Shown: piece by piece, positions 4,533 to 53,583 of the stretch
Numbering within the stretch: position 1 is the first letter of the stretch
How the letters are laid out: every line of letters starts with the position of its first letter
Origin: a phage
Assembly (NCBI GenBank): GCA_014685065.1
Contig: GCA_014685065.1_3930.1
Direction: 5' to 3' (one strand)
Length of the DNA: 64,000 nt
Position numbers and translations under genes: made by a program
Notes under the pieces: generated by a model
What the model was told of the DNA's origin: nothing
The model's database searches: none
The model's input: the letters and a program-made list of their open reading frames with translations, nothing else

Positions 4533-5720
4533 TTAAGCTGTTCTCTGCCATACATACAGTACGAAGGATGGCTGTTCAATGTTGAAAGCTTGTCCACCAC
4601 CAACACTGTTCGTGTTTCCACTATGCGTATGCTCAGAAGAAGAAACTGTCACAGTACCATTGTGCGTATGCGAACCAATACCAACTGTGTGACTGTGAGC
4701 ACCAATACCCACCATATGGTTGTGGTCACCAGTTGTGTTAGTGGTAACACTGAAAGAGTGGGTGTGCGCACCAGCGACTTCACAGACAACATCTGCTGAG
4801 TACCACGATTGGTCATTCCTTGAAGACCAGACCATTGCAGGTCTCTCCGACAGACCACCACCTGCTTCATAAGTCAATCTGTGGTTGTGAGCACCAGCAG
4901 CACTTGTTGACCCACTACCAACGTGATTGTGGTTACCAGTTGTGTTAGTGGTCTTTGTTCCATAGTCAAAAGAGTTGGTAGTCTTAGTTCCATAATCAAA
5001 AGCTGAGATTGAAACAGTTGCATTATGAGTATGACCACCACCACTAAGAGACACAGAGTGTGAGTGTTGAGGCATGTTATTAACTGACAAAGTGACAGTT
5101 GAAGCACCAAATACAGAACCTGCTGGCCTTGTATCAGAGTCATAACCAACCAACGCCCTACCTTTTGAAACTAACTCCCAAGTACCTCCACAAATTAAGT
5201 ATGTAGAAGGGTTTGCAGAGTTCATAGAAAGATGGATAGTACCTACTGGATAAGAAGCCTGAACAGCCTTGTACAAGTTATTTACTGCTCTTGCTGTAGC
5301 ATACTTATCTGCATCTTCATTATACAGGTTAGATGTTGTCCAGTTCTGAACATTACTTAAACCAACCTGTGCCTTAGTTGTATTGTGTGGGTTACTCTTG
5401 TCCTTGATATGTTGCTGGACAAGGTTATTAACCTCTTCTGAAGACATAATCTGTAGATTTGCTCTTGCCTCAGCTACATTAACAATATCTGATAAGTTAT
5501 TTGCAGCGACTAACTGAAGAGCATTAATAACATTATCTAAACCAATTTGTGTTTTAGTAACACCATGAGGGTTATTTTTTAGGCTTGAGTGTGGGGCAAG
5601 TAATTGCTCAAGAGTACATCTCTTATCCTCAATACCCTGCTTAAGATGGAAGATATCACTAAGGTCAATTGGTAAGGCTGCTTGAGGCAAGGCACTAATT
5701 TGAATTTCACCTACTGCCAT
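4533..5720 (-). CDS. tail fibre protein (second receptor-binding paralogue) with HxH repeats
   Basis: 395 aa; duplicated SAFDYGTKTTN unit; HSHSV, GNHNH, GAHNH, GAHTH, GDHNH, GAHSH, GSHTH motifs; C-terminus ...VWQRTA shared with the 794-aa fibre. Confidence 0.65.
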   Translation of the reverse strand: MAVGEIQISALPQAALPIDLSDIFHLKQGIEDKRCTLEQLLAPHSSLKNNPHGVTKTQIGLDNVINALQLVAANNLSDIVNVAEARANLQIMSSEEVNNLVQQHIKDKSNPHNTTKAQVGLSNVQNWTTSNLYNEDADKYATARAVNNLYKAVQASYPVGTIHLSMNSANPSTYLICGGTWELVSKGRALVGYDSDTRPAGSVFGASTVTLSVNNMPQHSHSVSLSGGGHTHNATVSISAFDYGTKTTNSFDYGTKTTNTTGNHNHVGSGSTSAAGAHNHRLTYEAGGGLSERPAMVWSSRNDQSWYSADVVCEVAGAHTHSFSVTTNTTGDHNHMVGIGAHSHTVGIGSHTHNGTVTVSSSEHTHSGNTNSVGGGQAFNIEQPSFVLYVWQRTA

Positions 5721-5722
5721 TA

Positions 5723-13738
<8,016 letters not shown>

Positions 13739-40589: not shown

Positions 40590-40597
40590 AATATCTT

Positions 40598-40632
40598 AAG
40601 AGCCTCCTTAATTGGGGGCTTTTTAATTTTTT
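40598..40632 (+). terminator. rho-independent terminator ending the plus-strand operon
   Basis: AGCCTCC-TTAATT-GGGGGCT hairpin followed by TTTTTAATTTTTT. Confidence 0.6.
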
Positions 40633-40639
40633 ATAAAAT

Positions 40640-42200
40640 TTTATCGGTTGTCCCAACCTCTGGGTCACCATCATATGTGAACAAAATATCTATCCTTCTT
40701 AACAACCTTTTTAATCTTACTCTCTATATAGTTATATAGTACTATATAGTATCTTAGTATCTATCTAGTGGTCTTAATAGCCCTCTATATAACCCTTCTA
40801 ACTAGCCTTCTAACAAGCCTTCTTAACAACCTATACAATCACCTTAACCATCTCTCTATACCCTCTTAGAAGCTCCTATACACCTCTTAATCTCTAGGTT
40901 AGATATGTTACCCTCTATAGGTGTTCACTAGGTATTACTAAGCCTCTATATAGACTGTTTTAACAAACTTAACAGGAATATCTTTACAGGCCTTATCTCA
41001 CAAGGTCTAACACGGTACTAACAAGGTATCTTATAAGCCTGTTTCTACCTGTATTTTTAAAAGACTGTATAGGTAATTATTCAGATTTTTAAAATTTTTA
41101 TAAAATAGGACTATCAAGTCATTTTTTAGGGTCTTTGAAGGAACTCAAAAATATCTGATTAGGATGTATATCTGCTTGGTAGCCCTTAACATCCCTGTAA
41201 CATCCCCTTTGCAGAATTTTAAAATATCCTTAACAATCTCTTAACAACTCTCTCAATCTCTTAACATCTCTTCAGAGGTCTTAACAGATTCTTAACATAA
41301 CTAACAAGGGCTTAACAGTTTCTTAACAGACGATACATGGTCTTTATAGTCTCTTAACAGATGACTAACAAGAGCTAACAAGTTAATTTTTAAGAGTTAT
41401 TTTGTTAAGATAATTAACAAGTTCCTAACAAGTGTTTAATCTTTTTAACAAGCTATTAACATGGTCACTATCTCTTTTCTTATCGTTCCCTTTCCTTTCT
41501 TAGTGAACTCTTAAACATACCTCTTAAAAGCTCTCTATAGCTCTGTATAGCCCCTTTTAAGCCTCTTCCTAGTAATTACACCCCAACTGTACAGATAGCT
41601 CTTTATAGGGCTTTACAGGAGCTTTTAAGGCTATGTCAAAGACTCTTACAAGGCTTTTACGTGGTCTTAACAGAGATTTAACAAGGGGCTAACAAGTTGC
41701 TAACAAGTGCCTTAAAAGCATAACTATGTAGGGATTGTTAAGAAATTGTTAAGAGAATGTTAAGGGGGCTAGCATTTACGTAACTTTGAAGATACATTTA
41801 CGTAACTTTTAAGCTACTTCAAAGTAACTTTATAACCCCTATAACATACTTTTTAGACACTATCAAGCCTTTTTAGATATTCACAAGAATACTAACGAGA
41901 CGATAAAGCTTACACCCTTATAAGATTCTTTTAAGTCTCTGGGAAGCTTTATAAAGGGCTTTTTAGGGTGAGTTAATGCAATCCCTTAAGTTAGGTTGAT
42001 AAGGCTGTTATAGAGCTTTATAGAGCGTTTAAACGGTTGCCCTTCCCTTTCGGGTTATGGGCTTATATTTAAGTTGATTTGATAAAAGGTTATAGAGTAG
42101 ACTATAGAGTTATTGCTTTTAAGGTATGAGATAGGTTCTATCGAATCAGTGGGAAGATTCTGGAAAGGAAAGGAAAGGGATTGTATAAGGATTCAATAGA
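40640..42200. repeat. ORF-free repeat-dense region (iteron-like CTTAACA arrays, TATAGAG boxes, tandem 15-mer)
   Basis: No ORF of 60 aa or more in 1.6 kb; at least 14 CTTAACA/CTAACAAG heptamers in 41221-41460, several ~11 bp apart; CCTCTATA(T)AG boxes; CATTTACGTAACTTT tandem at 41773/41795. Confidence 0.6.
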
Positions 42201-42202
42201 CG

Positions 42203-42230
42203 TAAAAAAGCCCCTTTAAATAGGGGCTGT
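42203..42230 (-). terminator. rho-independent terminator ending the minus-strand early cluster
   Basis: Perfect palindrome AGCCCCT-ATTTAA-AGGGGCT followed on minus strand by UUUUUU. Confidence 0.6.
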
Positions 42231-42266
42231 TCAGGTATCTGGGGCTATTTAGCCCCGTTGCGTCGA

Positions 42267-42515
42267 TTAGTTGTAACCTTGTTTATTGTAGTACAGGGAA
42301 ACAATCAAGTCACCCCAGTAATGATAGTGATGCTCGTCGTTTAATGCCTCTTTTACAGCATCTTTCCAGAAGTCATCAGTAGGGTTATAATCTGGAATAA
42401 CTTGTTTGATAACTGTCTTCACTAATGAAAAACACTCATCAGTTCCACCAATATCGAATTTAACGTCCAGAGTATAACAGCCATAGGCATTGACAGTTGC
42501 GCGGATAGTTGCCAT
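42267..42515 (-). CDS. hypothetical small protein (early cluster)
   Basis: 82 aa; preceded by type-A promoter/leader cassette and SD TAGGAGAT. Confidence 0.55.
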   Translation of the reverse strand: MATIRATVNAYGCYTLDVKFDIGGTDECFSLVKTVIKQVIPDYNPTDDFWKDAVKEALNDEHHYHYWGDLIVSLYYNKQGYN

Positions 42516-42607
42516 TTTAGAATCTCCTAGTTTAAGGGTTTTATTTAGTGGGGAGGTTATCGCCTCCCGTTGATTAGTAATTTACTGCATATTGGCGTAT
42601 GTTGCAA
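42516..42607 (-). promoter_or_regulatory. type-A cassette: promoter TTGCAA-N17-TAAATT plus conserved leader hairpin and SD
   Basis: Minus-sense -35/-10 at exact 17-bp spacing; transcribed hairpin CAACGGGAGG...CCTCCC; SD AGGAGAT. Confidence 0.55.
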
Positions 42608-42845
42608 GCCTTTTTTCGTTGTATTTTGTAAGAATCTCACAAGATACAACATCATACTTTGTGACAGCGTTGCCTTTGTCGAGGTCAAAAAAGCCAAACG
42701 CTTTACCATCTTTGAATCCGACAACTTCATAAGATTCTTTGATGATTTCACCATTGAATAAATCGCTTTCGATACGGTGAAACAGTGCTACATCTTCTTT
42801 GTCAGTTGCAATTTGTAAAAGTGTGGTTAATTCTACGTTTTCCAT
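42582..42845 (-). CDS. hypothetical small protein (early cluster)
   Basis: 87 aa; SD GGAG before ATG; type-A cassette upstream. Confidence 0.55.
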   Translation of the reverse strand: MENVELTTLLQIATDKEDVALFHRIESDLFNGEIIKESYEVVGFKDGKAFGFFDLDKGNAVTKYDVVSCEILTKYNEKRLATYANMQ

Positions 42846-42937
42846 CTTGATAACTCCAGTTTAGGACTTTATTTAGTGGGGAAGGTCATTCCCTCCCCGT
42901 TGATTGACAATTTACAGACTTTTTATTGTCTCGTCAA
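42846..42937 (-). promoter_or_regulatory. type-A cassette: promoter TTGACG-N17-TAAATT plus leader hairpin and SD
   Basis: Hairpin GGGGAGGGAATGACCTTCCCC in leader; same layout as other type-A copies. Confidence 0.55.
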
Positions 42938-43442
42938 TATCTTTTTCAATGTCTTTTAAAGTTTTTTCTAAGTTCTTGATATTGAAGGATAAACCTTCAC
43001 CGAGAGTCTTAGAGTAACCACTAGGACGTAAATTATACAGTTTAATTTCTTCCACTTTAAAGAGACTAACTAACTCACCGTTTACATCATAAGCCATTGA
43101 AACAGTATTTGCAGGTGCATTGTAAAACTTGTTTAGTGACTTGATAGAACGTTCATAAGCCATTTTATAACCGTTTAAAAGGCTTTTAACGTGGTTGTGA
43201 ACGTTTTTACACTCATCTAAGTAAATCTCTAAGAATAACGGTAATAATTCCGCTACAGCTTGCATAAAGTGAGAGACTACAACGGTTGAAACATTACGAC
43301 GATGAACGTAATAAGCCCCGTTTTCTGATTTGGTGATTGTTGCGAAATGTACCCCATTACAACGGAATTCGTATGTATCTTTTACAGGCTTAGACATTAC
43401 AGCATTTGAACGAATGAAGTTGATAGCTTGAAATTTGTTCAT
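42912..43442 (-). CDS. hypothetical protein (early cluster)
   Basis: 176 aa; type-A cassette upstream. Confidence 0.55.
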   Translation of the reverse strand: MNKFQAINFIRSNAVMSKPVKDTYEFRCNGVHFATITKSENGAYYVHRRNVSTVVVSHFMQAVAELLPLFLEIYLDECKNVHNHVKSLLNGYKMAYERSIKSLNKFYNAPANTVSMAYDVNGELVSLFKVEEIKLYNLRPSGYSKTLGEGLSFNIKNLEKTLKDIEKDIDETIKSL

Positions 43443-43530
43443 TTTAGAATCTCCAGTTTAGGACTTTATTTAGTGGGGAGGTTATTGCCTTCCCGTTGAT
43501 TAGTAATTTACTTGTTTTGATAGTTGATTG
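43443..43530 (-). promoter_or_regulatory. type-A cassette: promoter TTGCAA-N17-TAAATT plus leader hairpin and SD
   Basis: Conserved ACTAATCAACGGGAAGG...CCTCCCCACTAAATAAAG leader. Confidence 0.55.
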
Positions 43531-43662
43531 CAAGTAATTTTTTGAGCTTATCTATAAAGAATCTTTTAAGTGAATCCCTTTTAGATAAACCCCCTCGAAC
43601 AAAGTTACCAATGTCAAGGGGTATTGTCAACATTTTTTTAAAAGTTTTTTGTAAGTTATTGA

Positions 43663-44004
43663 TTAACTGATGAATATTTTTTCAGGTTTTACATAGCTGA
43701 TACGTTGGTTTTTTAGCAGGTCATCCCAGATTAACGCGGCGATATGGGCATAACCGGATTCACGTAAAAGCTTCATTGTTTTACTTCTCGTTTCAAAACG
43801 GCTTGCGTAGTACTCACTATTTAAAACCGTTTTATTCCCTTCGTTATCTACATGGATAATCTGCATCACTTGAAAGGGGCTTGTGTCCTCGCCTTTGTTC
43901 CACTGTTCAAAGTATTTTAGGCACTGCATAGGTGACATCTTATCACTTACTTGAGTTGACCAAGATGCGCCAGCTTTATCGGTAATTACGGTTACATAAG
44001 CCAT
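43663..44004 (-). CDS. hypothetical protein (early cluster)
   Basis: 113 aa; type-A cassette upstream; followed downstream by 160-bp spacer with tandem TTGACA boxes. Confidence 0.55.
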   Translation of the reverse strand: MAYVTVITDKAGASWSTQVSDKMSPMQCLKYFEQWNKGEDTSPFQVMQIIHVDNEGNKTVLNSEYYASRFETRSKTMKLLRESGYAHIAALIWDDLLKNQRISYVKPEKIFIS

Positions 44005-44100
44005 TTTTGAATCTCCTAGTTTAAGGACTTTATTTAGTGGGGAAGGTCATTCCCTCCCCGTTGATTGACAATTTACAGACTTTTATCAGGCTTGTCTAGT
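44005..44100 (-). promoter_or_regulatory. type-A cassette: promoter TAGACA-N17-TAAATT plus leader hairpin and SD
   Basis: Same conserved leader as other type-A copies. Confidence 0.5.
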
Positions 44101-44329
44101 CTTTTTCAATGATAATTTCATATTGACCGTCAACACTGTCGAAATAGATTCCGTCGTCATCTTCTGTCTTAAAGTAACATTGTATATCATCACTAGCGGG
44201 ATAGTCTTGTCTTGCTATCTGGCAAACTTGAATAGCATTTTCTTTACTTCCTGTAAACTCTTCAAGCCCTTTAAAATCGCATGAATGACCGTTACAAATA
44301 GAAAGGATGAGGTAAACGGTTGTAAGCAT
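44096..44329 (-). CDS. hypothetical small Cys-containing protein (early cluster)
   Basis: 77 aa; preceded by hairpin AGCCCCTTACAGGGGCT + UUUU and GGGAGG SD. Confidence 0.5.
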   Translation of the reverse strand: MLTTVYLILSICNGHSCDFKGLEEFTGSKENAIQVCQIARQDYPASDDIQCYFKTEDDDGIYFDSVDGQYEIIIEKD

Positions 44330-44339
44330 GATTTAAGCC

Positions 44340-44365
44340 TCCCAAAAGCCCCTGTAAGGGGCTAA
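44340..44365 (-). terminator. weak terminator/attenuator hairpin
   Basis: Minus-sense AGCCCCT-TACA-GGGGCT then UUUUGGGAGG (short U-tract). Confidence 0.35.
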
Positions 44366-44395
44366 ATAGTGTTTATAAGGTGATTGCATAGGTTT

Positions 44396-44938
44396 TTAGA
44401 AAAAGCTCTTTAAATCCTCTTCTGCGATGTTTCCTGTCAGTGTATCCATGATGTCACAAAAAACCTGAATATTGTCCGACTGTTGAACACTTTTAGCAAG
44501 TAGTTCTAATGTCTCATCAAGATAGTTCATATTTGGGTTATCCAGTGAAGGAAGACAAAAAGGCGAATACATAGCGTTAAACTCTGTTGTATAGACCTTT
44601 TTAATCCAGTTTACATCAAAGTACTCTGTAAAACTTGCTACACTCGACATATTATCACAAGAATAATCATCATTTAGCTCATCATCTGGAATATCGAGTT
44701 CTAAGATAACAATATTTTGGGTTTTCATCTGGAAGGCCGCCGTAATAGTGGCGTTCCCTAGAGCTTGCTGAATGCCCTCCGATGTTATCTCTTCATCATC
44801 GTCGCCATAGATTTTATTTTCTGGATACACGTAAAAATTGCCGTCCATATCCGAACAATTCCATGCGCCTGATGGTTTATCACCGTTATTAATCAGGTTG
44901 AGGAAATTTTCTTGAGTAGTTCCGTGATAACATTTCAT
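44396..44938 (-). CDS. hypothetical acidic protein (early cluster)
   Basis: 180 aa; type-B cassette upstream. Confidence 0.55.
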   Translation of the reverse strand: MKCYHGTTQENFLNLINNGDKPSGAWNCSDMDGNFYVYPENKIYGDDDEEITSEGIQQALGNATITAAFQMKTQNIVILELDIPDDELNDDYSCDNMSSVASFTEYFDVNWIKKVYTTEFNAMYSPFCLPSLDNPNMNYLDETLELLAKSVQQSDNIQVFCDIMDTLTGNIAEEDLKSFF

Positions 44939-45023
44939 TTTTGAATCTCCAGTTTAGGATTTAGTGGTAAAGCTCTTTATCTGAGGCTTAAGTTATCAAC
45001 TTTTAAGCCCCTTGTAAAGTACT
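44939..45023 (-). promoter_or_regulatory. type-B cassette: conserved palindrome + AGATAAAGAGCTTTACC box + SD
   Basis: GGGGCTTAA...TTAAGCC(T)C inverted repeat with variable loop, then conserved box and TGGAGATTC SD; TTTACA -35-like hexamer upstream. Confidence 0.45.
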
Positions 45024-45227
45024 TTATTTGTTATTTTTGACAACTTTTAAAACTGCAAGATAGCCTAAGCAATAAGAATCACCGAAGAGAGTCCTACCCA
45101 TGAAAGAATCCTCTTTGATATCCTTTGCAGTGACAGTTTTTTCTACGCCGTGGGAAAGGACTATATCACCAACTTTGATATCTTTGATGTGTGTAGTTTC
45201 AATGGTTAAACCATTAATAATATCCAT
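45024..45227 (-). CDS. hypothetical small protein (early cluster)
   Basis: 67 aa; type-A cassette upstream. Confidence 0.5.
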   Translation of the reverse strand: MDIINGLTIETTHIKDIKVGDIVLSHGVEKTVTAKDIKEDSFMGRTLFGDSYCLGYLAVLKVVKNNK

Positions 45228-45330
45228 TTTCAGAATCTCCAGTTTAGGACTTTATTTAGTGGGGGAGGTCATTCCCTCCCCGTTGATGTGTAATTTAGAC
45301 TATCTAAAAATCAGTGTCAACAAAAATTTT
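45228..45330 (-). promoter_or_regulatory. type-A cassette: consensus promoter TTGACA-N17-TAAATT plus leader hairpin and SD
   Basis: Exact TTGACA -35; leader hairpin GGGGAGGGAATGACCTCCCCC. Confidence 0.6.
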
Positions 45331-45735
45331 TTATAGTTCTGCATAAATTGCATCGCAGATATTACGGAAATCGTGATTTGCCAAATTACGCTGCAACCAA
45401 GTGGCGAAAAAGTCAGCGATTGCAAAGTTAGCATCATACTCGACAGATAACCACACTTTAACAGCAAATCGGAACATTTTCAAATCTAACTCTTTATTCA
45501 TTACCTTAGATTTGCCTAACATGTCGGCCATTTCATGTTGTGCACCGTCTAGCGTGATACCTGCTGCAACGTCAGTCAATGAGTTTTTTACGCTTTCAAC
45601 GTCTAAGATAACACTTTGAATCTTCCCAATAATGTTTTGCAGTGTTTCATCTGGTGCTGATGACGTGATAACATTAATCCGGTTAACGGTCAAACGTGCT
45701 TTTAAAATTGATAATTCACGGTTATTAATAGCCAT
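45331..45735 (-). CDS. hypothetical protein (early cluster)
   Basis: Start set at ATG (MAINN...) after SD TTGGAGAAC; ORF-track start is a TTG inside the SD. Confidence 0.5.
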   Translation of the reverse strand: MAINNRELSILKARLTVNRINVITSSAPDETLQNIIGKIQSVILDVESVKNSLTDVAAGITLDGAQHEMADMLGKSKVMNKELDLKMFRFAVKVWLSVEYDANFAIADFFATWLQRNLANHDFRNICDAIYAEL

Positions 45736-45821
45736 TTTTAAGTTCTCCAATTTAGGATTTAGTGGTAAAGCTCTTTATCTGGGGCTTACTTTATCGAACT
45801 ATAAGCCCCTTGTAAAGTACT
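45736..45821 (-). promoter_or_regulatory. type-B cassette
   Basis: GGGGCTTATAGTTCGATAAAGTAAGCCCC palindrome + AGATAAAGAGCTTTACC + SD. Confidence 0.45.
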
Positions 45822-46094
45822 TTACATTAAATGCAGTTTTTTGCCTTTTACTATAATGTAACTCGATGCGCTATTGCTTTGCAAATCTTGATAAATTCTG
45901 CGTAAACGTCCTTCGTAGTATACTTTCCAACTGGTTGGAATCTTTTTCCCGTATCCTGTAGCAGTTTTTTGGAGTCCTGCAACTTGCCAATTTAAGATGT
46001 GTTGCTCAGCCCGTAAATCTTCAAAGCACATCACACCGTCTACATAGTGACGCAAGGTGACATTTAAGGTGCGACCATTGTTAGTAGTGTACAT
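45822..46094 (-). CDS. hypothetical protein (early cluster)
   Basis: Start set at ATG (MYTTNNG...) after SD AGGAGC; track start is GTG overlapping upstream small ORF. Confidence 0.5.
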   Translation of the reverse strand: MYTTNNGRTLNVTLRHYVDGVMCFEDLRAEQHILNWQVAGLQKTATGYGKKIPTSWKVYYEGRLRRIYQDLQSNSASSYIIVKGKKLHLM

Positions 46095-46119
46095 TTTAAA
46101 AGCTCCTAGTTTAAGGGTT

Positions 46120-46278
46120 TTATTTTGACAGTTCACTAATTAAGACATCAAAGATTATATCATTATCTGCTACAGTTGCAACACCAGTGATATAATCAAT
46201 TTCTAGGATAACAACAACTTTCGTACATAAACCGTCATCTATATCATTCCAGACAACTTTATCACCTGCACAAAACAT
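46120..46278 (-). CDS. unlisted small ORF (~52 aa) with its own type-A cassette
   Basis: ATG preceded by TGGAGATTCTGAAA leader and full type-A promoter; below the 60-aa track cutoff. Confidence 0.45.
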   Translation of the reverse strand: MFCAGDKVVWNDIDDGLCTKVVVILEIDYITGVATVADNDIIFDVLISELSK

Positions 46279-46375
46279 TTTCAGAATCTCCAGTTTAGGA
46301 CTTTATTTAGTGGGGAAGGTCATTCCCTCCCCGTTGATGTGTAATTTAATCTATCTAAAAATCAGTGTCAACAGT
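46279..46375 (-). promoter_or_regulatory. type-A cassette: consensus promoter TTGACA-N17-TAAATT plus leader hairpin and SD
   Basis: Near-identical to cassette at 45228-45330. Confidence 0.6.
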
Positions 46376-46700
46376 TTTGTTTTCGTTTGCTCAATTCTTG
46401 AACAATTACAACGTAGTAGTCTTTTAAGTCACTGACATTTAAAGCATTTATCAGAGAATTATAATCATCAACTAACTGAAAATTATCTTTGAAGATGTCA
46501 CTTATCTGATAGGTTTTCGCTTTATATCTGAAGCTCATCTCTAGCCGCTTTATTTGCTCATCACTTAAACGCCCTAGAAAGCTTTCTACAAGGCTATTGC
46601 TAACCTGCTGGGTGGTTGCCTTATTTGCTAGATTATAGGCTTTATATGCCTTATATAGAGCGAAAATGGCAATGATTGCAGTGATACCAGTCATTAACAT
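46368..46700 (-). CDS. hypothetical membrane-anchored protein (early cluster)
   Basis: 110 aa; N-terminal hydrophobic helix. Confidence 0.5.
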   Translation of the reverse strand: MLMTGITAIIAIFALYKAYKAYNLANKATTQQVSNSLVESFLGRLSDEQIKRLEMSFRYKAKTYQISDIFKDNFQLVDDYNSLINALNVSDLKDYYVVIVQELSKRKQNC

Positions 46701-46990
46701 GGTGTTTCCTCTTTACGTGATACTTTGCCACTTACAGATATCTCATAAGATTCTAATAAATCGCTTTTAGACTTTACAGGACTTTTAAAAGTATCATCGT
46801 ATATATTAACTTGCAATACAGGTTTTTTATACTCCCTGCAACTATTCCATAAGCAAATTACTACACGACGGCCTTTTATTTTGCCATGTAACCATTCCAT
46901 AACATCATGACTATTTCTTGATGTCTCGATAAAATCAATTTTATTGAGTAATTTGCTAAGGTTTTCCCTAACTTTATTTGATAATTTCAT
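46694..46990 (-). CDS. hypothetical basic protein (early cluster)
   Basis: 98 aa; type-B cassette upstream. Confidence 0.5.
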   Translation of the reverse strand: MKLSNKVRENLSKLLNKIDFIETSRNSHDVMEWLHGKIKGRRVVICLWNSCREYKKPVLQVNIYDDTFKSPVKSKSDLLESYEISVSGKVSRKEETPC

Positions 46991-47081
46991 TTTTGAATCT
47001 CCTAGTTTAAGGGTTAATTTGATAAATCTCTTTATCTGGGGCTATCATATCCGCTTGTTAGCCCCGTGTAAAGAAATCTAT
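46991..47081 (-). promoter_or_regulatory. type-B cassette (variant)
   Basis: GGGGCTAACAAGCGGATATGATAGCCCC palindrome + AGATAAAGAGATTTATC + SD TAGGAGATTC. Confidence 0.4.
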
Positions 47082-47594
47082 TTAGTTCTTAAAGATATTC
47101 ATCACTGAATCTTTTAATGCTTCCAAGCGCTCTAATACTTCAGATTCTGCGTCTGCGTTGTTCACTTCCTCTTTTAGCCTGTCATCTAAATCATCGCCGT
47201 CACTGTAGCACCAATCGAAAGCGTAACCAATATAAAAACTTTCTAAAACAGTGCTGCCATTTGCATCTACAACTTTCGCGGCAATGTTATATTCTGAAGC
47301 CTCTAAATCTCTTTCTAGTTCTTTCTGTAAGCTGATGTAAGCCTCTTTTGATGGATTTGCCCGGCCTTGTTTTGCATAGTCACTTGAAAGCTGTTTAAGG
47401 CTGTAATGTAAAGGGATTGCATATTTAAATTCATTACGCTGACAGCTAGGATTTTTAATCGTCACACCGCCTTGATGGTCATCTGTAAATTCCCAATTAT
47501 CAAGATTATGGCTTGCTTCAAAGCAATTGACAGCTTCATAAATAATAGTGAATTTTTCTTTTACAACTTCAAAGGTAGCGTCTACAGTTTTCAT
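47082..47594 (-). CDS. hypothetical acidic protein (early cluster)
   Basis: 170 aa, Asp/Glu-rich C-terminus; type-B cassette upstream. Confidence 0.55.
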   Translation of the reverse strand: MKTVDATFEVVKEKFTIIYEAVNCFEASHNLDNWEFTDDHQGGVTIKNPSCQRNEFKYAIPLHYSLKQLSSDYAKQGRANPSKEAYISLQKELERDLEASEYNIAAKVVDANGSTVLESFYIGYAFDWCYSDGDDLDDRLKEEVNNADAESEVLERLEALKDSVMNIFKN

Positions 47595-47679
47595 TTTTGA
47601 ATCTCCAGTTTAGGATTGATTGGTAAAGCTCTTTATCTGGGGCTTAAGGTATCAGCTTTTAAGCCCCCTGTAAAGTACT
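47595..47679 (-). promoter_or_regulatory. type-B cassette
   Basis: GGGGGCTTAAAAGCTGATACCTTAAGCCCC palindrome + AGATAAAGAGCTTTACC + SD. Confidence 0.45.
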
Positions 47680-47973
47680 TTATTTGTTAATTTTCAGCTT
47701 TGCATAACTTCTCATTGTACGAATGGGGGATGTTAATGCTACGCGTCTAATGTATGCCTTTTTCGTGTATACATTTGTCTTCCCGATAGTGTTTACACAT
47801 GTAAAAAGGTTTATCGGTGAATTTTTTAACTTCAACTGTTTATCAACCTTCACGCCCCACCTTACAGCAGATTGTTTTCCATTGTCAACCACTTTCCCGC
47901 ATAACTTTTTAGCCATAACGCGAGCGTCATCACGAGTCTTTGCAGTAATTACAACGTTTTTGATAATAGCCAT
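47680..47973 (-). CDS. hypothetical basic protein (early cluster)
   Basis: Start set at ATG (MAIIKN...) after SD TTGGAGAAC; track start is a TTG inside the SD. Confidence 0.5.
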   Translation of the reverse strand: MAIIKNVVITAKTRDDARVMAKKLCGKVVDNGKQSAVRWGVKVDKQLKLKNSPINLFTCVNTIGKTNVYTKKAYIRRVALTSPIRTMRSYAKLKINK

Positions 47974-48058
47974 TTTTAAGTTCTCCAATTTAGGATTTAG
48001 TGGTAAAGCTCTTTATCTGGGCTTACTTTATCGAACTATAAGCCCCTTGTAAAGTTCT
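47974..48058 (-). promoter_or_regulatory. type-B cassette
   Basis: Near-identical to copy at 45736-45821. Confidence 0.45.
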
Positions 48059-48442
48059 TTATTTGTTAATTTTGAAGATAGTTACATAACCATCGCTGCC
48101 GATGATTTGTGATGCTCCAGCTTTTTCTACTTGATAGCCCATATTTTCAAGATGATAAACAGCATCATCATAACCATATGCGCCACCCTGATAACGTCTC
48201 TTATCGCATTTTATCAGGTTTTTACCACGTCCAGCAAGTGCATTCAGTACAGCTTTTTCACTTGATAGTGTGCCATCTAACATGGTTGCCGTGTAATGGT
48301 TGATTCTATTCCCGTTTACATCATACTTAAAATTGAATGCGTGAACAACGATAATGTTACCTTTAAAATTTTCATCAAGTGACTTCTCCAGTGCGTTGCG
48401 AAAGTTGTCTTTGTTGATGAATTTAGGTGCACGATATGCCAT
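48059..48442 (-). CDS. hypothetical protein (early cluster)
   Basis: 127 aa; type-B cassette upstream. Confidence 0.55.
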   Translation of the reverse strand: MAYRAPKFINKDNFRNALEKSLDENFKGNIIVVHAFNFKYDVNGNRINHYTATMLDGTLSSEKAVLNALAGRGKNLIKCDKRRYQGGAYGYDDAVYHLENMGYQVEKAGASQIIGSDGYVTIFKINK

Positions 48443-48532
48443 TTTTGAATCTCCTAGTTTAAGGGTTAATTTGGTAAAGCTCTTTATCTGGGGCTTACTT
48501 TATCGAACTATAAGCCCCATGTAAAGTACTTT
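48443..48532 (-). promoter_or_regulatory. type-B cassette
   Basis: GGGGCTTATAGTTCGATAAAGTAAGCCCC palindrome + AGATAAAGAGCTTTACC + SD TAGGAGATTC. Confidence 0.45.
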
Positions 48533-48754
48533 TTATTTATCGTAATAGTAAATCGCTGTTTGCCTTGTAAAATTCTTAGTATTTCTTGTAAGGTAGCAAT
48601 TAGAGTTTATAGCTGTTTCTACATAGTTGCAATAGTCAGCTTCTGATATTCTAGACCATACGCCACAAATTTGCATGTAAAAACGTTTTACCTTTGTGTT
48701 AACGTTAGTTGTAACCATCAATTCACGACTGTAAAGCATTATTTCGCGCTCCAT
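48533..48754 (-). CDS. hypothetical small protein (early cluster)
   Basis: 73 aa; overlaps upstream ORF by 16 nt; weak SD. Confidence 0.35.
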   Translation of the reverse strand: MEREIMLYSRELMVTTNVNTKVKRFYMQICGVWSRISEADYCNYVETAINSNCYLTRNTKNFTRQTAIYYYDK

Positions 48755-48927
48755 TTCTCAAAGAGTTCAGCAGGGAAACGTTCGCTATACCCTTTTAAGG
48801 AAAAAGTATTATCTTTGTGGATAGCTTCCACCTGATAAACCTTATAAGAGCGTATAGTTAGCATTTTGTAAGAGTATTCGTGCTTAATGTTAACCTCATC
48901 GCCAACTTTAATTTTTCTTGATGCCAT
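48739..48927 (-). CDS. hypothetical small protein, first gene of early cluster
   Basis: 62 aa; type-A cassette upstream. Confidence 0.5.
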   Translation of the reverse strand: MASRKIKVGDEVNIKHEYSYKMLTIRSYKVYQVEAIHKDNTFSLKGYSERFPAELFEKWSAK

Positions 48928-49035
48928 TTTTGAATCTCCAGTTTAGGATTTTATTTAGTGGGGAAGGTCATTCCCTCCCCGTTGATGTAAATATTAGATA
49001 ACCACGTTCAAAGAGTCAATAAAAATTTTAAAAAT
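48928..49035 (-). promoter_or_regulatory. type-A cassette: promoter TTGACT-N17-TAATAT plus leader hairpin and SD
   Basis: First cassette of the cluster; leader CAACGGGGAGGGAATGACCTTCCCC. Confidence 0.55.
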
Positions 49036-49129
49036 ATTTTTGGCAAAACTGTAATGAAACGGGTGCGCACGACTACCACAAAACAGAACGCAAATCAAGA
49101 ATTATTTTTCAATCCGCTACAAATTTTTC

Positions 49130-49400
49130 TCTTGACTTTTGGGGAGAGGGGGAGTAAGAGGGGGAGAGGGGTTGGGCTGGCTGTCTATAAAAACCTACCT
49201 GCACAATTCTAAAATGATTTTTCTTGCCCGACCTGAGCGGGGTCTGCACGTTTTGAAAATGAAAAAGCTCTTTGGAGATTACCTGCACAGTTTGAAAATG
49301 AATTTTCTCTTTGGAGTTCAAAATTTTCTCTATAGATTTCTCTACAGAACTCTACCTGCACAAATCTGAAATGAAAAAGCCCTCCTTACCTGAAAAATTT
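49130..49400. repeat. G-rich polypurine tract followed by four direct repeats of a ~22-bp box
   Basis: GGGGAGAGGGGGAGTAAGAGGGGGAGAGGGG at ~49142-49172; ACCTGCACA..T.TGAAAATGA-type box at ~49197, 49239, 49282, 49353. Confidence 0.5.
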
Positions 49401-49447
49401 ACCAGATAAGAAAGGCTTAGGCTATTGTGAATATCCTACAGAGTTTC

Positions 49448-50233
49448 TTAGTTCTTTGCGTCTAAGAAGGTAACTTCTGGTGAAGAGAAGATTGCCTCAA
49501 TACCCTCATCAGTTCTTGCATAGATATAAGCTTCTGCATCACTACCAAATGTTACAGCAATTCTGTGATTGCTCTTTGACAGGTGGGTAACTAGAGCGTT
49601 ACTTAGAGACATCTTTTCAACCGGAGGGTTACTTTGATGTGTCTTACCTTTTCTTCGTCTGAAGAGGGTAACTGCGTTATCTGTGAACACTGCTACACCT
49701 GCAAAGTATTCTGGTTCACAGTAGTTCTTCCAACCTGAGAGTAACTTGTGGTACATCTCTCCTTCATAGACATATAGATAAACATCTACACTCTTCATCA
49801 CCTGATTGATGATAACTGTGACGGCTTGAGGGTCAAGTCCACCGATACCTGCACCAATCATAGGTAAACCAACTTTCTTCAACTGATTAACTTCACAGTA
49901 TCTGTTAAGTTGCTTCAAAGACGACTCTAAAGCACTGTATCGGGCATCTTTACCAGTCTTAAGCTGAGTGTAAAGGTTAGCTATACGACCTTGTTTTAAG
50001 CGTGCTACAGAGAAATTACCTAGTAAATTCTCACAGGGTTTGTGACCTATACCACCTGCATAGAGATAAACTTCTGTATCGGTCTCATATGCTTTTGGGT
50101 AAAGTTTAGAAATCTTGTCAGCGATACCTGCACCCATTAGGTTCATGCAGTTACAACCATGACCAATGATGTCAAACTTACCTTTATCAAATGCAGCAAA
50201 GATATCACCATTGATGATTTTTACAATACCCAT
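49448..50233 (-). CDS. macro-domain protein (TARG1/DarG-like ADP-ribose hydrolase fold) with C-terminal extension
   Basis: 261 aa; N-terminal 150 aa has macro-domain signatures (IINGDIF, DIIGHGCNCMNLMGAGIA, LPMIGAGIGGLD) resembling TARG1-type macrodomains. Confidence 0.55.
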   Translation of the reverse strand: MGIVKIINGDIFAAFDKGKFDIIGHGCNCMNLMGAGIADKISKLYPKAYETDTEVYLYAGGIGHKPCENLLGNFSVARLKQGRIANLYTQLKTGKDARYSALESSLKQLNRYCEVNQLKKVGLPMIGAGIGGLDPQAVTVIINQVMKSVDVYLYVYEGEMYHKLLSGWKNYCEPEYFAGVAVFTDNAVTLFRRRKGKTHQSNPPVEKMSLSNALVTHLSKSNHRIAVTFGSDAEAYIYARTDEGIEAIFSSPEVTFLDAKN

Positions 50234-50434
50234 TTAGCATCTCTCCCAAGATTCTTTATCTTCTGAAGGTTTTACACGTTGCCCCTCATGGTCTACCCAG
50301 ATGCACCCACAACCTTCACAGATTACTGGCATTGCATAACCAGCTTTAAAATCATCTTCAGTGATAAGACCTTTTAAGTCACCTGTATCACGTCCGAACA
50401 TTTCGATAGAACAGTCTTTACAGAAGTCAGCCAT
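50234..50434 (-). CDS. small Cys-rich (zinc-binding-like) protein
   Basis: Start set at MADFCKDC... after SD AAGAGG; CxxC ... CEGCGC pattern. Confidence 0.4.
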   Translation of the reverse strand: MADFCKDCSIEMFGRDTGDLKGLITEDDFKAGYAMPVICEGCGCIWVDHEGQRVKPSEDKESWERC

Positions 50435-50654
50435 GAATAATTGCCTCTTGAATGATGATACCTTTACCACAACGACTTTTAAAGTCTTCCAATGGTTCAG
50501 AGATGAAGCCACGTAAGCAGTCAGTGAATACTAAGTTCTTCCTGTAAGCTATCACATCATTTGCTGTAAATGGGATGACCTCATTTCGTCCAATGAATAC
50601 TGCTGACCTTATAAGTTTTCGTGTCTTTTTATCTCTGGCTAGTATTACTTTCAT
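50427..50654 (-). CDS. hypothetical small protein
   Basis: 75 aa ORF coupled to neighbours. Confidence 0.4.
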   Translation of the reverse strand: MKVILARDKKTRKLIRSAVFIGRNEVIPFTANDVIAYRKNLVFTDCLRGFISEPLEDFKSRCGKGIIIQEAIIHG

Positions 50655-53483: not shown

Positions 53484-53583
53484 TGGTTCTCCTGTTTAGT
53501 TTATCGTGACAACAATTATACAGCACTCTGCACAAAATACAAATAAAAAAGGCCGCCGAAGCAGCCTTTTAAGAAATTACTTA

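Follow-up and report, generated by a model that had tools for sequence, protein, structure and literature searches.

The replication origin of phage lambda comprises four iterons bound by the O protein, an AT-rich region and a palindrome, and the T4 origin oriE likewise combines iterons with the RepEB protein. Here we describe an array of four direct repeats in an intergenic region of a phage of the genus Felixounavirus (NCBI GenBank assembly GCA_014685065.1, contig GCA_014685065.1_3930.1), within a 64,000-nt stretch of DNA, hereafter the window, that encodes 26 tRNAs and has its genes in the order usual for Felix O1. As in the lambda and T4 origins, the repeats are ~20 bp long, share one orientation, are flanked by A-tracts and occupy a single locus per genome, and a strand-asymmetric or AT-rich segment with a palindrome adjoins them; unlike in these origins, no cognate initiator gene was recognised and the spacing is 37-77 bp as compared with ~20 bp. 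The repeat core is asymmetric, whereas the lambda iterons are palindromic, and the locus is intergenic rather than embedded within an initiator gene. We consider it probable that the repeats are the cores of a protein-binding array read at the DNA level, on which one nucleoprotein complex would form, and we tentatively favour the view that this locus is the replication origin of the phage, or one of its origins.

All genes around the array lie on the minus strand, and the layout is given below in this orientation (gene sense). The sequence-only reading of this region, made before the present analysis, had pointed to four direct copies of a box at roughly 42-73-bp intervals. On the plus strand, the box pattern CTGCACANTTYTRAAATGA starts at positions 49199, 49244, 49283 and 49356 and matches nowhere else in the window, four occurrences as compared with 0.61 expected by chance, a number reached by none of 100 shuffles; the second copy, without the leading 'AC', reads GTCTGCACG. 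The four copies were thus borne out, and of the interval range the 73 bp was exact, the full measured set of start-to-start distances being 45, 39 and 73 bp. In gene sense, the unit core reads (A/T)5-TCATTT-N7-GTGCA(G/T), with cores at 49198-49217, 49243-49262, 49282-49301 and 49355-49374, and the full unit spans ~38-40 nt: a purine-rich CTCCAAAGAG or GGTCGGGCAAG, five A/T bases, TCATTT, seven variable A/T-rich bases and GTGCAG(G/A). When scored with a weight matrix built on 83 distinct units (maximum 38 bits), the four units reached 33-36 bits, as compared with 14.8 bits for the best site in 20 shuffled 64-kb windows (mean 5.6). Unit 1 (CTTTT-TCATTTCAGATTTGTGCAGG; 49355-49379, core 49374-49355; 36.2 bits) abuts the T-tract of a terminator and is followed by unit 2 (AAAAT-TCATTTTCAAACTGTGCAGG, after CTCCAAAGAG; 49282-49306; 34.4 bits), unit 3 (CTTTT-TCATTTTCAAAACGTGCAGA, after CTCCAAAGAG; 49243-49267; 33.4 bits) and unit 4 (AAAAA-TCATTTTAGAATTGTGCAGG, after GGTCGGGCAAG; 49198-49222; 33.9 bits), all on the minus strand.

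When the scan covered the window plus the 24 kb that complete the genome of the close relative ASO1A, only these four units scored at least 16 bits. A lone sequence at 53527-53551 on the minus strand (CTTTT-TTATTTGTATTTTGTGCAGA) scored 15.8 bits, as compared with the shuffle maximum of 14.8, and is a possible extra site of the array type. It carries TTATTT-N7-GTGCA, lies directly 3' of the rIIB terminator and overlaps the -35 element and spacer of a TATAAT promoter that serves the lysin/kinase operon; it is kept in Felixounavirus and Mooglevirus, with GTGTA variants, and a search in Kolesnikvirus did not find it.

To follow the array across the subfamily, we compared the homologous gap in 12 annotated records (four genera) and ~30 IMG/VR contigs, yielding 34 distinct sequences. 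The array was present throughout, in Felixounavirus, Mooglevirus, Suspvirus, Kolesnikvirus and a distant contig (L057; IMGVR_UViG_3300045988_063805), in 3-5 copies, and its position was constant, directly after the terminator of the macro-domain gene, although the terminator hairpin and the downstream gene differ between lineages. In every lineage unit 1 abuts the terminator T-tract, despite at least two replacements of the hairpin sequence. Most Felixounavirus, Mooglevirus and Suspvirus sequences carry four units at spacings of 73-77, 39-41 and 43-45 bp; Kolesnikvirus (Erwinia phages) carries four tandem units at 37, 37 and 39 bp, and in the 88-kb divergent contig L057 a macro-domain gene of reduced length is followed by 4-5 units. 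The long spacer between units 1 and 2 of the window (49310-49354, minus strand) is probably a decayed unit, because a full extra Kolesnikvirus unit aligns opposite to it (GTTTTTCATTTCAAAATCGTGCATAAGG in Kolesnikvirus, opposite TCTGTAGAGAAATCTATAGAGAAAATTTTGAA in the spacer); Si3/VpaE1-type phages have other sequence at this position and three units only. A weak fifth core-like stretch, TTTCATTACAGTTTTGCC (49042-49059, minus strand; repeat family D6), which came up in the alignment and in the DnaA-box scan, may be of chance origin; at the aligned position, Mooglevirus and Suspvirus read TCATTCACA, which we take to be the sequence of the R5M DnaA box of oriC.

Across the 83 distinct units, TCATTT and GTGCA were 92-98% invariant, the seven A/T-rich bases between them varied, and the spacers were variable in sequence, with unit spacings of 37-45 and 73-77 bp. 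The five bases preceding TCATTT were AAAA(A/T) or CTTTT (A, 0.42-0.43; T, 0.56-0.57; G and C, 0.01 each), such that the flank carries an A-tract on either one strand or the other, which fits DNA bending rather than an RNA feature. Scanning the GTDB genomes with the two-core pattern returned unrelated tandem or coding repeats only, the same scan of IMG/VR found the array in Ounavirinae-like contigs only, and a BLAST search of the array against plasmids and E. coli genomes gave no match. The segment 48900-49500 is 100% identical to Felixounavirus LF82P3 (OZ035772) and was matched by 228-289 phage records, nearly throughout of the Ounavirinae. The array is the clearest conserved non-coding element of these genomes apart from the ends, kept in at least four genera. 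The 38-40-nt units, their abutment on the terminator, a 47-bp conserved block described below, the conservation across the subfamily and the uniqueness within the genome all go beyond the sequence-only reading.

The array region is non-coding, in agreement with its earlier description as intergenic: none of the four open reading frames (ORFs) of at least 50 aa stays intact throughout, each being interrupted in other lineages by stops or by indels of 2 or 4 nt, and in wV8, a phage of the same genus, three already carry a frameshift. 'Hypothetical proteins' are annotated over the array in the GenBank records of Felix O1, Mijalis, Sf13, ESh22 and D4. Nor does the array behave as a structured RNA, since its fold did not deviate from that of column shuffles in the sense (z = 0.1) or the antisense orientation (z = -0.16), as compared with z = -12.9 for the terminator, used as a control; searching positions 48000-50500 against Rfam with E up to 1 yielded 0 matches. 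The invariant two-part core, the variable spacers and the flanking A/T run point to duplex DNA that is read by a protein. The sequence-only reading, which had suggested a regulator binding platform or a replication element, had therefore named the right class. A sequence-specific protein would contact two adjacent grooves in each unit, next to an intrinsically bent flank.

Three further observations concern sequences in or near the array. In the VpaE1_ev035 genome (L014 in our set; LR699048), at ~241-300 of the intergenic region, the C-rich tract contains an insert, CTGTCTCTAGAGACAG, between duplicated copies of CTCTTACTCCCCC; this insert is probably an assembly artefact at a tract that is hard to sequence, because it resembles joined Nextera/Tn5 mosaic ends. 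In L057 (sense ~5600-5770), the stretch following the array is crowded with TTAACA-type repeats, including TTATTAACA and TCATTCACA, which have no counterpart in the window. The sequence ACCTGCAC occurs 11 times in the window as compared with 1.7 expected, and three of these occurrences belong to the array; the one outside copy that was checked, at 49847, falls in a glycine-rich coding stretch of the macro-domain gene.

The ORF-free gap that holds the array (48928-49447; 520 bp) ranks third by size in the window, behind those of the tRNA and terminal-repeat regions. In gene sense it runs from the stop codon of the macro-domain gene through an intrinsic terminator, the four same-orientation units, a C-rich tract, the 47-bp block, a variable stretch, an AT-rich UP-like stretch, a promoter, a leader hairpin and a ribosome-binding site to a 62-aa gene. 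The upstream gene (49448-50233) encodes a 261-aa macro-domain protein (annotated 'phosphatase'), and its terminator (49377-49418, minus strand), detected by a pattern scan and annotated in the ASO1A, KhF3 and wV8 records, consists of a 17-pair stem followed by TTTCATTT, a T-tract that leads straight into unit 1. In the alignment, the terminator folds in sense with -16.3 kcal (z = -12.9), as compared with just -1.4 in antisense. Beyond the units, the G-rich tract GGGGAGAGGGGGAGTAAGAGGGGGAGAGGGG occupies 49141-49171 of the plus strand, or up to 49176 together with the following TTGGG, and is C-rich and G-free in gene sense. It is adjoined by an AT-rich block (49095-49141; AAAAGTCAAGAGAAAAATTTGTAGCGGATTGAAAAATAATTCTTGA in sense) that is near-invariant in the alignment, more conserved than any other part of the gap: the block is nearly unchanged in Felixounavirus, Mooglevirus and Suspvirus though its flanks diverge, is absent in Kolesnikvirus, and occurs once in the genome. 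It contains an inverted repeat, TCAAGA...TCTTGA, whose hairpin scored z = -3.0 in sense without covariation, and, on the plus strand, a -35-like TTGACT.

Downstream, an AT-rich UP-like stretch (49020-49045, ~93% AT as counted by eye) and a sigma-70 promoter together span 48991-49045 on the minus strand; the promoter, TTGACT-17-TAATAT with hexamers spanning 49019-48991, was called by the promoter scan, is annotated in ASO1A, is kept in all genera and heads the first early transcription unit. The 5'-leader hairpin GGGGAGGGAATGACCTTCCCC (48960-48980, minus strand) precedes the ribosome-binding site of the 62-aa gene (48739-48927) and lies outside the array, being part of a promoter/leader module of 65-110 bp that recurs in ~13 copies across 42511-48986, one before each small early gene (48923-48986, 48438-48532, 47964-48075, 47592-47694, 46988-47081, 46276-46348, 45733-45824, 45224-45297, 44936-45049, 43999-44076, 43440-43518, 42854-42915 and 42511-42586). 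Because the module recurs ~12 more times downstream, the sequence-only reading was accurate in placing the region upstream, in minus sense, of the first early-cluster promoter. Some of the module copies are annotated in wV8 as DR_1, DR_6, DR_7 and DR_9.

The physical ends of the genome lie at a direct terminal repeat (41178-41769), as seen in record PP886228, in which the first 581 bases equal the last 581; UAB_69 carries a direct terminal repeat annotation in the region matching 41000-42000 of the window, and in UAB_Phi87 a 608-bp direct terminal repeat was demonstrated by Bal31 mapping (PMC4837284). These ends therefore place the array 7.6-8.3 kb (~9% of the genome) inside the right physical end, and the interval between the array and the end holds small early genes only, with sigma-70 promoters and transcribed toward the end. 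This small-gene cluster resembles a host-takeover cluster. The terminal repeat lies in a 1.7-kb ORF-free region (40590-42266) on which transcription converges from both sides, with a homopurine (GGAAA)n run at 42162-42180. The window is a mosaic with respect to public genomes: it is 100% identical to LF82P3 (OZ035772) in the array region and 90.5% identical to it in the terminal-repeat region (41000-42000), for which the best identity of any public record was at most 93.5%. Among the records matching the array region, GU169904.1 ('Staphylococcus phage SA1', 147 kb) carries this Felix O1-type sequence at 93.5% identity, and one 'Campylobacter' record matches as well; both are probably mislabelled or chimeric.

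Of the roles such an array could have, we lean, with some reserve, toward that of an origin, because it combines a single locus, 3-5 iterons with bent flanks, an asymmetric tract, an AT-rich palindromic block and conservation throughout the subfamily despite turnover of the flanks. According to this model, the array, the asymmetric tract and the 47-bp block would act together in cis as a single locus, found once in the genome, where the terminal early-gene module has its inner boundary. A protein bound to the iterons would bend and open the neighbouring AT-rich DNA, onto which the primase-helicase and polymerase of the phage would load, while the upstream terminator would shield the complex from incoming transcription.

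Several points weigh against an origin. The spacing of the units is not helically regular; the array of the window has no DnaA boxes, and no conserved site within one mismatch of the IHF consensus WATCAANNNNTTR was found in the region (AATCAAGAATTAT, in the 47-bp block, has two mismatches). A distance of 15-25 kb separates the array from the replication genes, which belong to another transcription block, and a replisome made of a T7-type primase-helicase and PolA classically starts from transcripts rather than from iterons. A Pfam scan of 20 phage proteins (10 hypothetical proteins near the replication genes and 10 near the array) revealed no Rep, O or DnaD-type initiator domain; it gave only the macro domain, a PRA-PH domain and one HTH_3 regulator. 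This 99-aa HTH_3 protein is the sole clear DNA binder among the scanned proteins, and proteins of its class usually bind palindromes. There is no change of GC skew at 49 kb, an observation that is uninformative on the start of replication because the skew follows gene orientation. Finally, the abutment of unit 1 on the terminator and the possible fifth site on a promoter agree no less well with a role in transcription.

Such a role, in which the array marks a transcription boundary or serves as an operator array, is nearly as likely as an origin, even if we would not bet on it. Units bound by a phage or host protein would act as a roadblock that reinforces the terminator and, together with the tract, whose C-rich, G-free sense RNA could possibly serve as a loading site for Rho on read-through transcripts, would insulate the early module and the terminal repeat from read-through out of the rIIA-to-macro-domain operon; alternatively, the array could be the place at which a regulator that sets the timing of the early genes nucleates or is titrated. 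This explanation accounts well for the contact of unit 1 with the terminator T-tract in every lineage, for the folding of the terminator in the sense orientation only, and for the placement of the array immediately before the first early promoter module in a series of ~13, but ~12 other, near-identical early promoters have no such site, and the promoter is 180-380 bp away from the cores. The one further candidate site, at 53527-53551, also adjoins a terminator and covers the -35 element and spacer of a TATAAT promoter; this site, however, is marginal as compared with shuffles, variable (GTGTA) and not found in Kolesnikvirus. The phage encodes a possible binder in its HTH_3 regulator, the Bas63 counterpart of which lowers fitness when disrupted, according to PhageMaP data that for Bas63 are gene-level and contain no intergenic scores, but the asymmetric core would be unusual for a dimer of the Cro/C1 type, and many relatives are devoid of the C-rich tract. 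A different explanation sets out from the position of the array: in the manner of the T5 injection stop signal, the right-terminal 8-9% of the genome with its host-takeover genes would enter the cell first and pause at the array until early proteins are made, with a host protein on the array (DnaA-like in the Erwinia-phage lineage) providing the stop or boundary signal. If true, such staged entry, or another checkpoint near the genome end, would mean that injection stops have evolved a second time, independently of the T5 family. The array is ~9% (7.6-8.3 kb) from the right end as compared with 7.9% in T5 (10.1101/866236), the genes from there to the end are all small and have sigma-70 promoters, and the region is large and untranslated, with repeats in one orientation. 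Felix O1 and a T5-like phage have 29 non-receptor host factors in common, including IHF (PMC8744999), and the Kolesnikvirus cores match 8/9 positions of a DnaA box, paired DnaA boxes being the T5 stop signal proposed by Davison. Nevertheless, we regard a checkpoint as unlikely: the cores in the window are not DnaA boxes and the locus has no paired boxes, just one 6-bp inverted repeat, the weight matrix found no match in the T5 stop-signal region, and the terminal repeat measures ~0.6 kb and not 10 kb. We met no report of two-step transfer in the literature on Felix O1-type phages, in which no search was aimed at that question, and SPO1, for which no stop signal is known, also has a terminal host-takeover module.

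Two further explanations turn on the G-rich tract, which the sequence-only reading had singled out as an exceptional polypurine tract that could form a G-quadruplex or triplex. Exceptional it is: 49141-49176 is the only canonical G-quadruplex motif (four runs of G3+ with N1-7 loops) on either strand of the 64-kb window, as compared with 0.045 expected under a first-order Markov model, and with 22 G in 31 nt the tract exceeds the next-best stretch of the window, which has 16. It is interrupted by one T, so that the G-richness of the description holds and strict homopurine character does not. The canonical form is found in the window, Felix O1, wV8, Mooglevirus and Suspvirus, with changed loops in the last three. 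However, the tract is absent or replaced in about half of the 34 distinct homologues: ~13 distinct Felixounavirus homologues (BPS17S6/L27 type) have an unrelated, non-G-rich sequence of equal length in its place, Kolesnikvirus retains three G-runs only, and a single substitution breaks the motif in KhF3 and L033, both of them sharing ~99% identity with the window over the region. As the tract is replaced, reduced or broken in relatives, a G-quadruplex or triplex cannot be the conserved function of the region, and we consider it very unlikely to be a functional element at all; judged from the alignment, the tract is a variable, dispensable segment. A non-coding RNA, either an antisense G-rich RNA forming an R-loop or acting as a primer, or a sense read-through RNA with the repeats as RNA motifs, seems to us nearly as improbable. 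On the plus strand the tract sits between the conserved TTGACT and a hexamer starting with TA, and antisense transcription could start from this -35-like TTGACT (49134-49139) with the -10-like hexamer TAAGAG. The TTGACT-17-TA arrangement is kept even where the tract is replaced, as in the BPS17S6 type, which by eye aligns as TTGACT-17-TGG-TAGCCT with an extended -10, so that in lineages without the tract it could possibly become a respectable extended -10 promoter, and G-clusters downstream of a promoter favour R-loops, as in ColE1 and mitochondrial CSBII. In the window, though, the -10 hexamer TAAGAG has no T at -7 and the promoter scan makes no call, conserved structure was found on neither strand and no Rfam match was obtained, the far-end hairpin fails to fold in the antisense orientation and therefore offers no terminator for an antisense RNA, and the alternation of A-tracts and T-tracts in the units speaks against a motif read at the RNA level.

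Other binding sites were considered as well. The units are not an array of sigma-70 promoters, as the scan yielded only the known promoter at 49019-48991, and TAnnnT-like hexamers follow some cores only (read by eye). To our knowledge, none of the sites for sigma-54, MarA/SoxS/Rob (marbox), CRP, Fis, OmpR, PhoB or CpxR fits the units; the marbox (GCAC-N7-AAA) has a spacing that is one off, and several positions fail. In the published record, Felix O1 infection is impaired in himA/himD (IHF) mutants of Salmonella (PMC8744999), a need for IHF that fits some higher-order DNA-protein complex without locating that complex at the array. The 2010 genome paper of Felix O1 states that the temporal regulation of transcription is not known and lists twelve direct repeats of at least 24 bp, the array units not being among them (PMC3185647). 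In the literature on Felix O1-type phages we found no mapped origin, no cis-regulatory site and no mention of the array, and a search for transcriptomes of these phages returned nothing usable.

Typing of Salmonella, biocontrol and therapy all make wide use of Felix O1-type phages. The identity of the protein that binds the array would probably reveal a replication origin, the switch of the host-takeover module or an entry checkpoint, and would also show phage engineers the ~300 bp to be left untouched and the part, namely the G tract, that tolerates change.

Beyond the phage origins, the array invites comparison with several known systems. Like the 43-bp repeats of F sopC and like P1 parS, it is built of tandem ~40-bp units with a short protein-binding core, a layout approached most closely by Kolesnikvirus, with four units at 37-39 bp; unlike in these partition sites, inverted repeats do not make up the cores, a partner of the ParA/ParB type was not identified, and it is not evident why a virulent phage whose ends are fixed would need partition. 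With the DnaA box (TTWTNCACA), as found in oriC and datA, the array shares its GTGCA half, which on the other strand forms the TGCACA of box positions 4-9, and the cores of Kolesnikvirus and L057, reading CTATGCACA, match 8/9 positions. In the window, Felixounavirus, Mooglevirus and Suspvirus, however, positions 1-3 read ACC or GTC, giving at least three mismatches, such that the DnaA-box test fails in these three enterobacterial genera, and the invariant TCATTT half has no place in a DnaA box. A DnaA-box cluster was accordingly rejected for the window, in which no core is within one mismatch of the consensus; elsewhere in the region, DnaA matches numbered 2 as compared with 1.6 expected, and in Kolesnikvirus 6-7 as compared with 1.6.

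The SPO1 host-takeover module resembles the Felix O1-type arrangement in having terminal small early genes, each with a strong host-type promoter, but it is a gene module rather than a repeat array and lies inside a 13-kb terminal redundancy. Repeat Region 3 of T5, the injection stop signal, shares with the array conserved, untranslated, same-orientation repeats at ~8-9% from the genome end that bound small sigma-70 early genes (10.1101/866236). The T5 region, however, is 1.2 kb long, is rich in palindromes and in paired DnaA boxes and forms part of a terminal repeat of 10 kb (10.1101/866236), whereas the array described here has four simple units, no DnaA boxes in the window, a 0.6-kb terminal repeat and no weight-matrix similarity to the T5 region. 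In T5 (AY587007, 9468-10409) there are nine DRD repeats, TGTGC(A/G)AATCCGACA, and the DRC repeats contain GAATCATT, so that each half of the core has a short echo there; these are 6-7-mers picked post hoc, and the echo may well be due to chance. Protein-binding arrays of direct repeats are themselves well known, and the array of the Felix O1-type phages is a new, unannotated example with a new motif.

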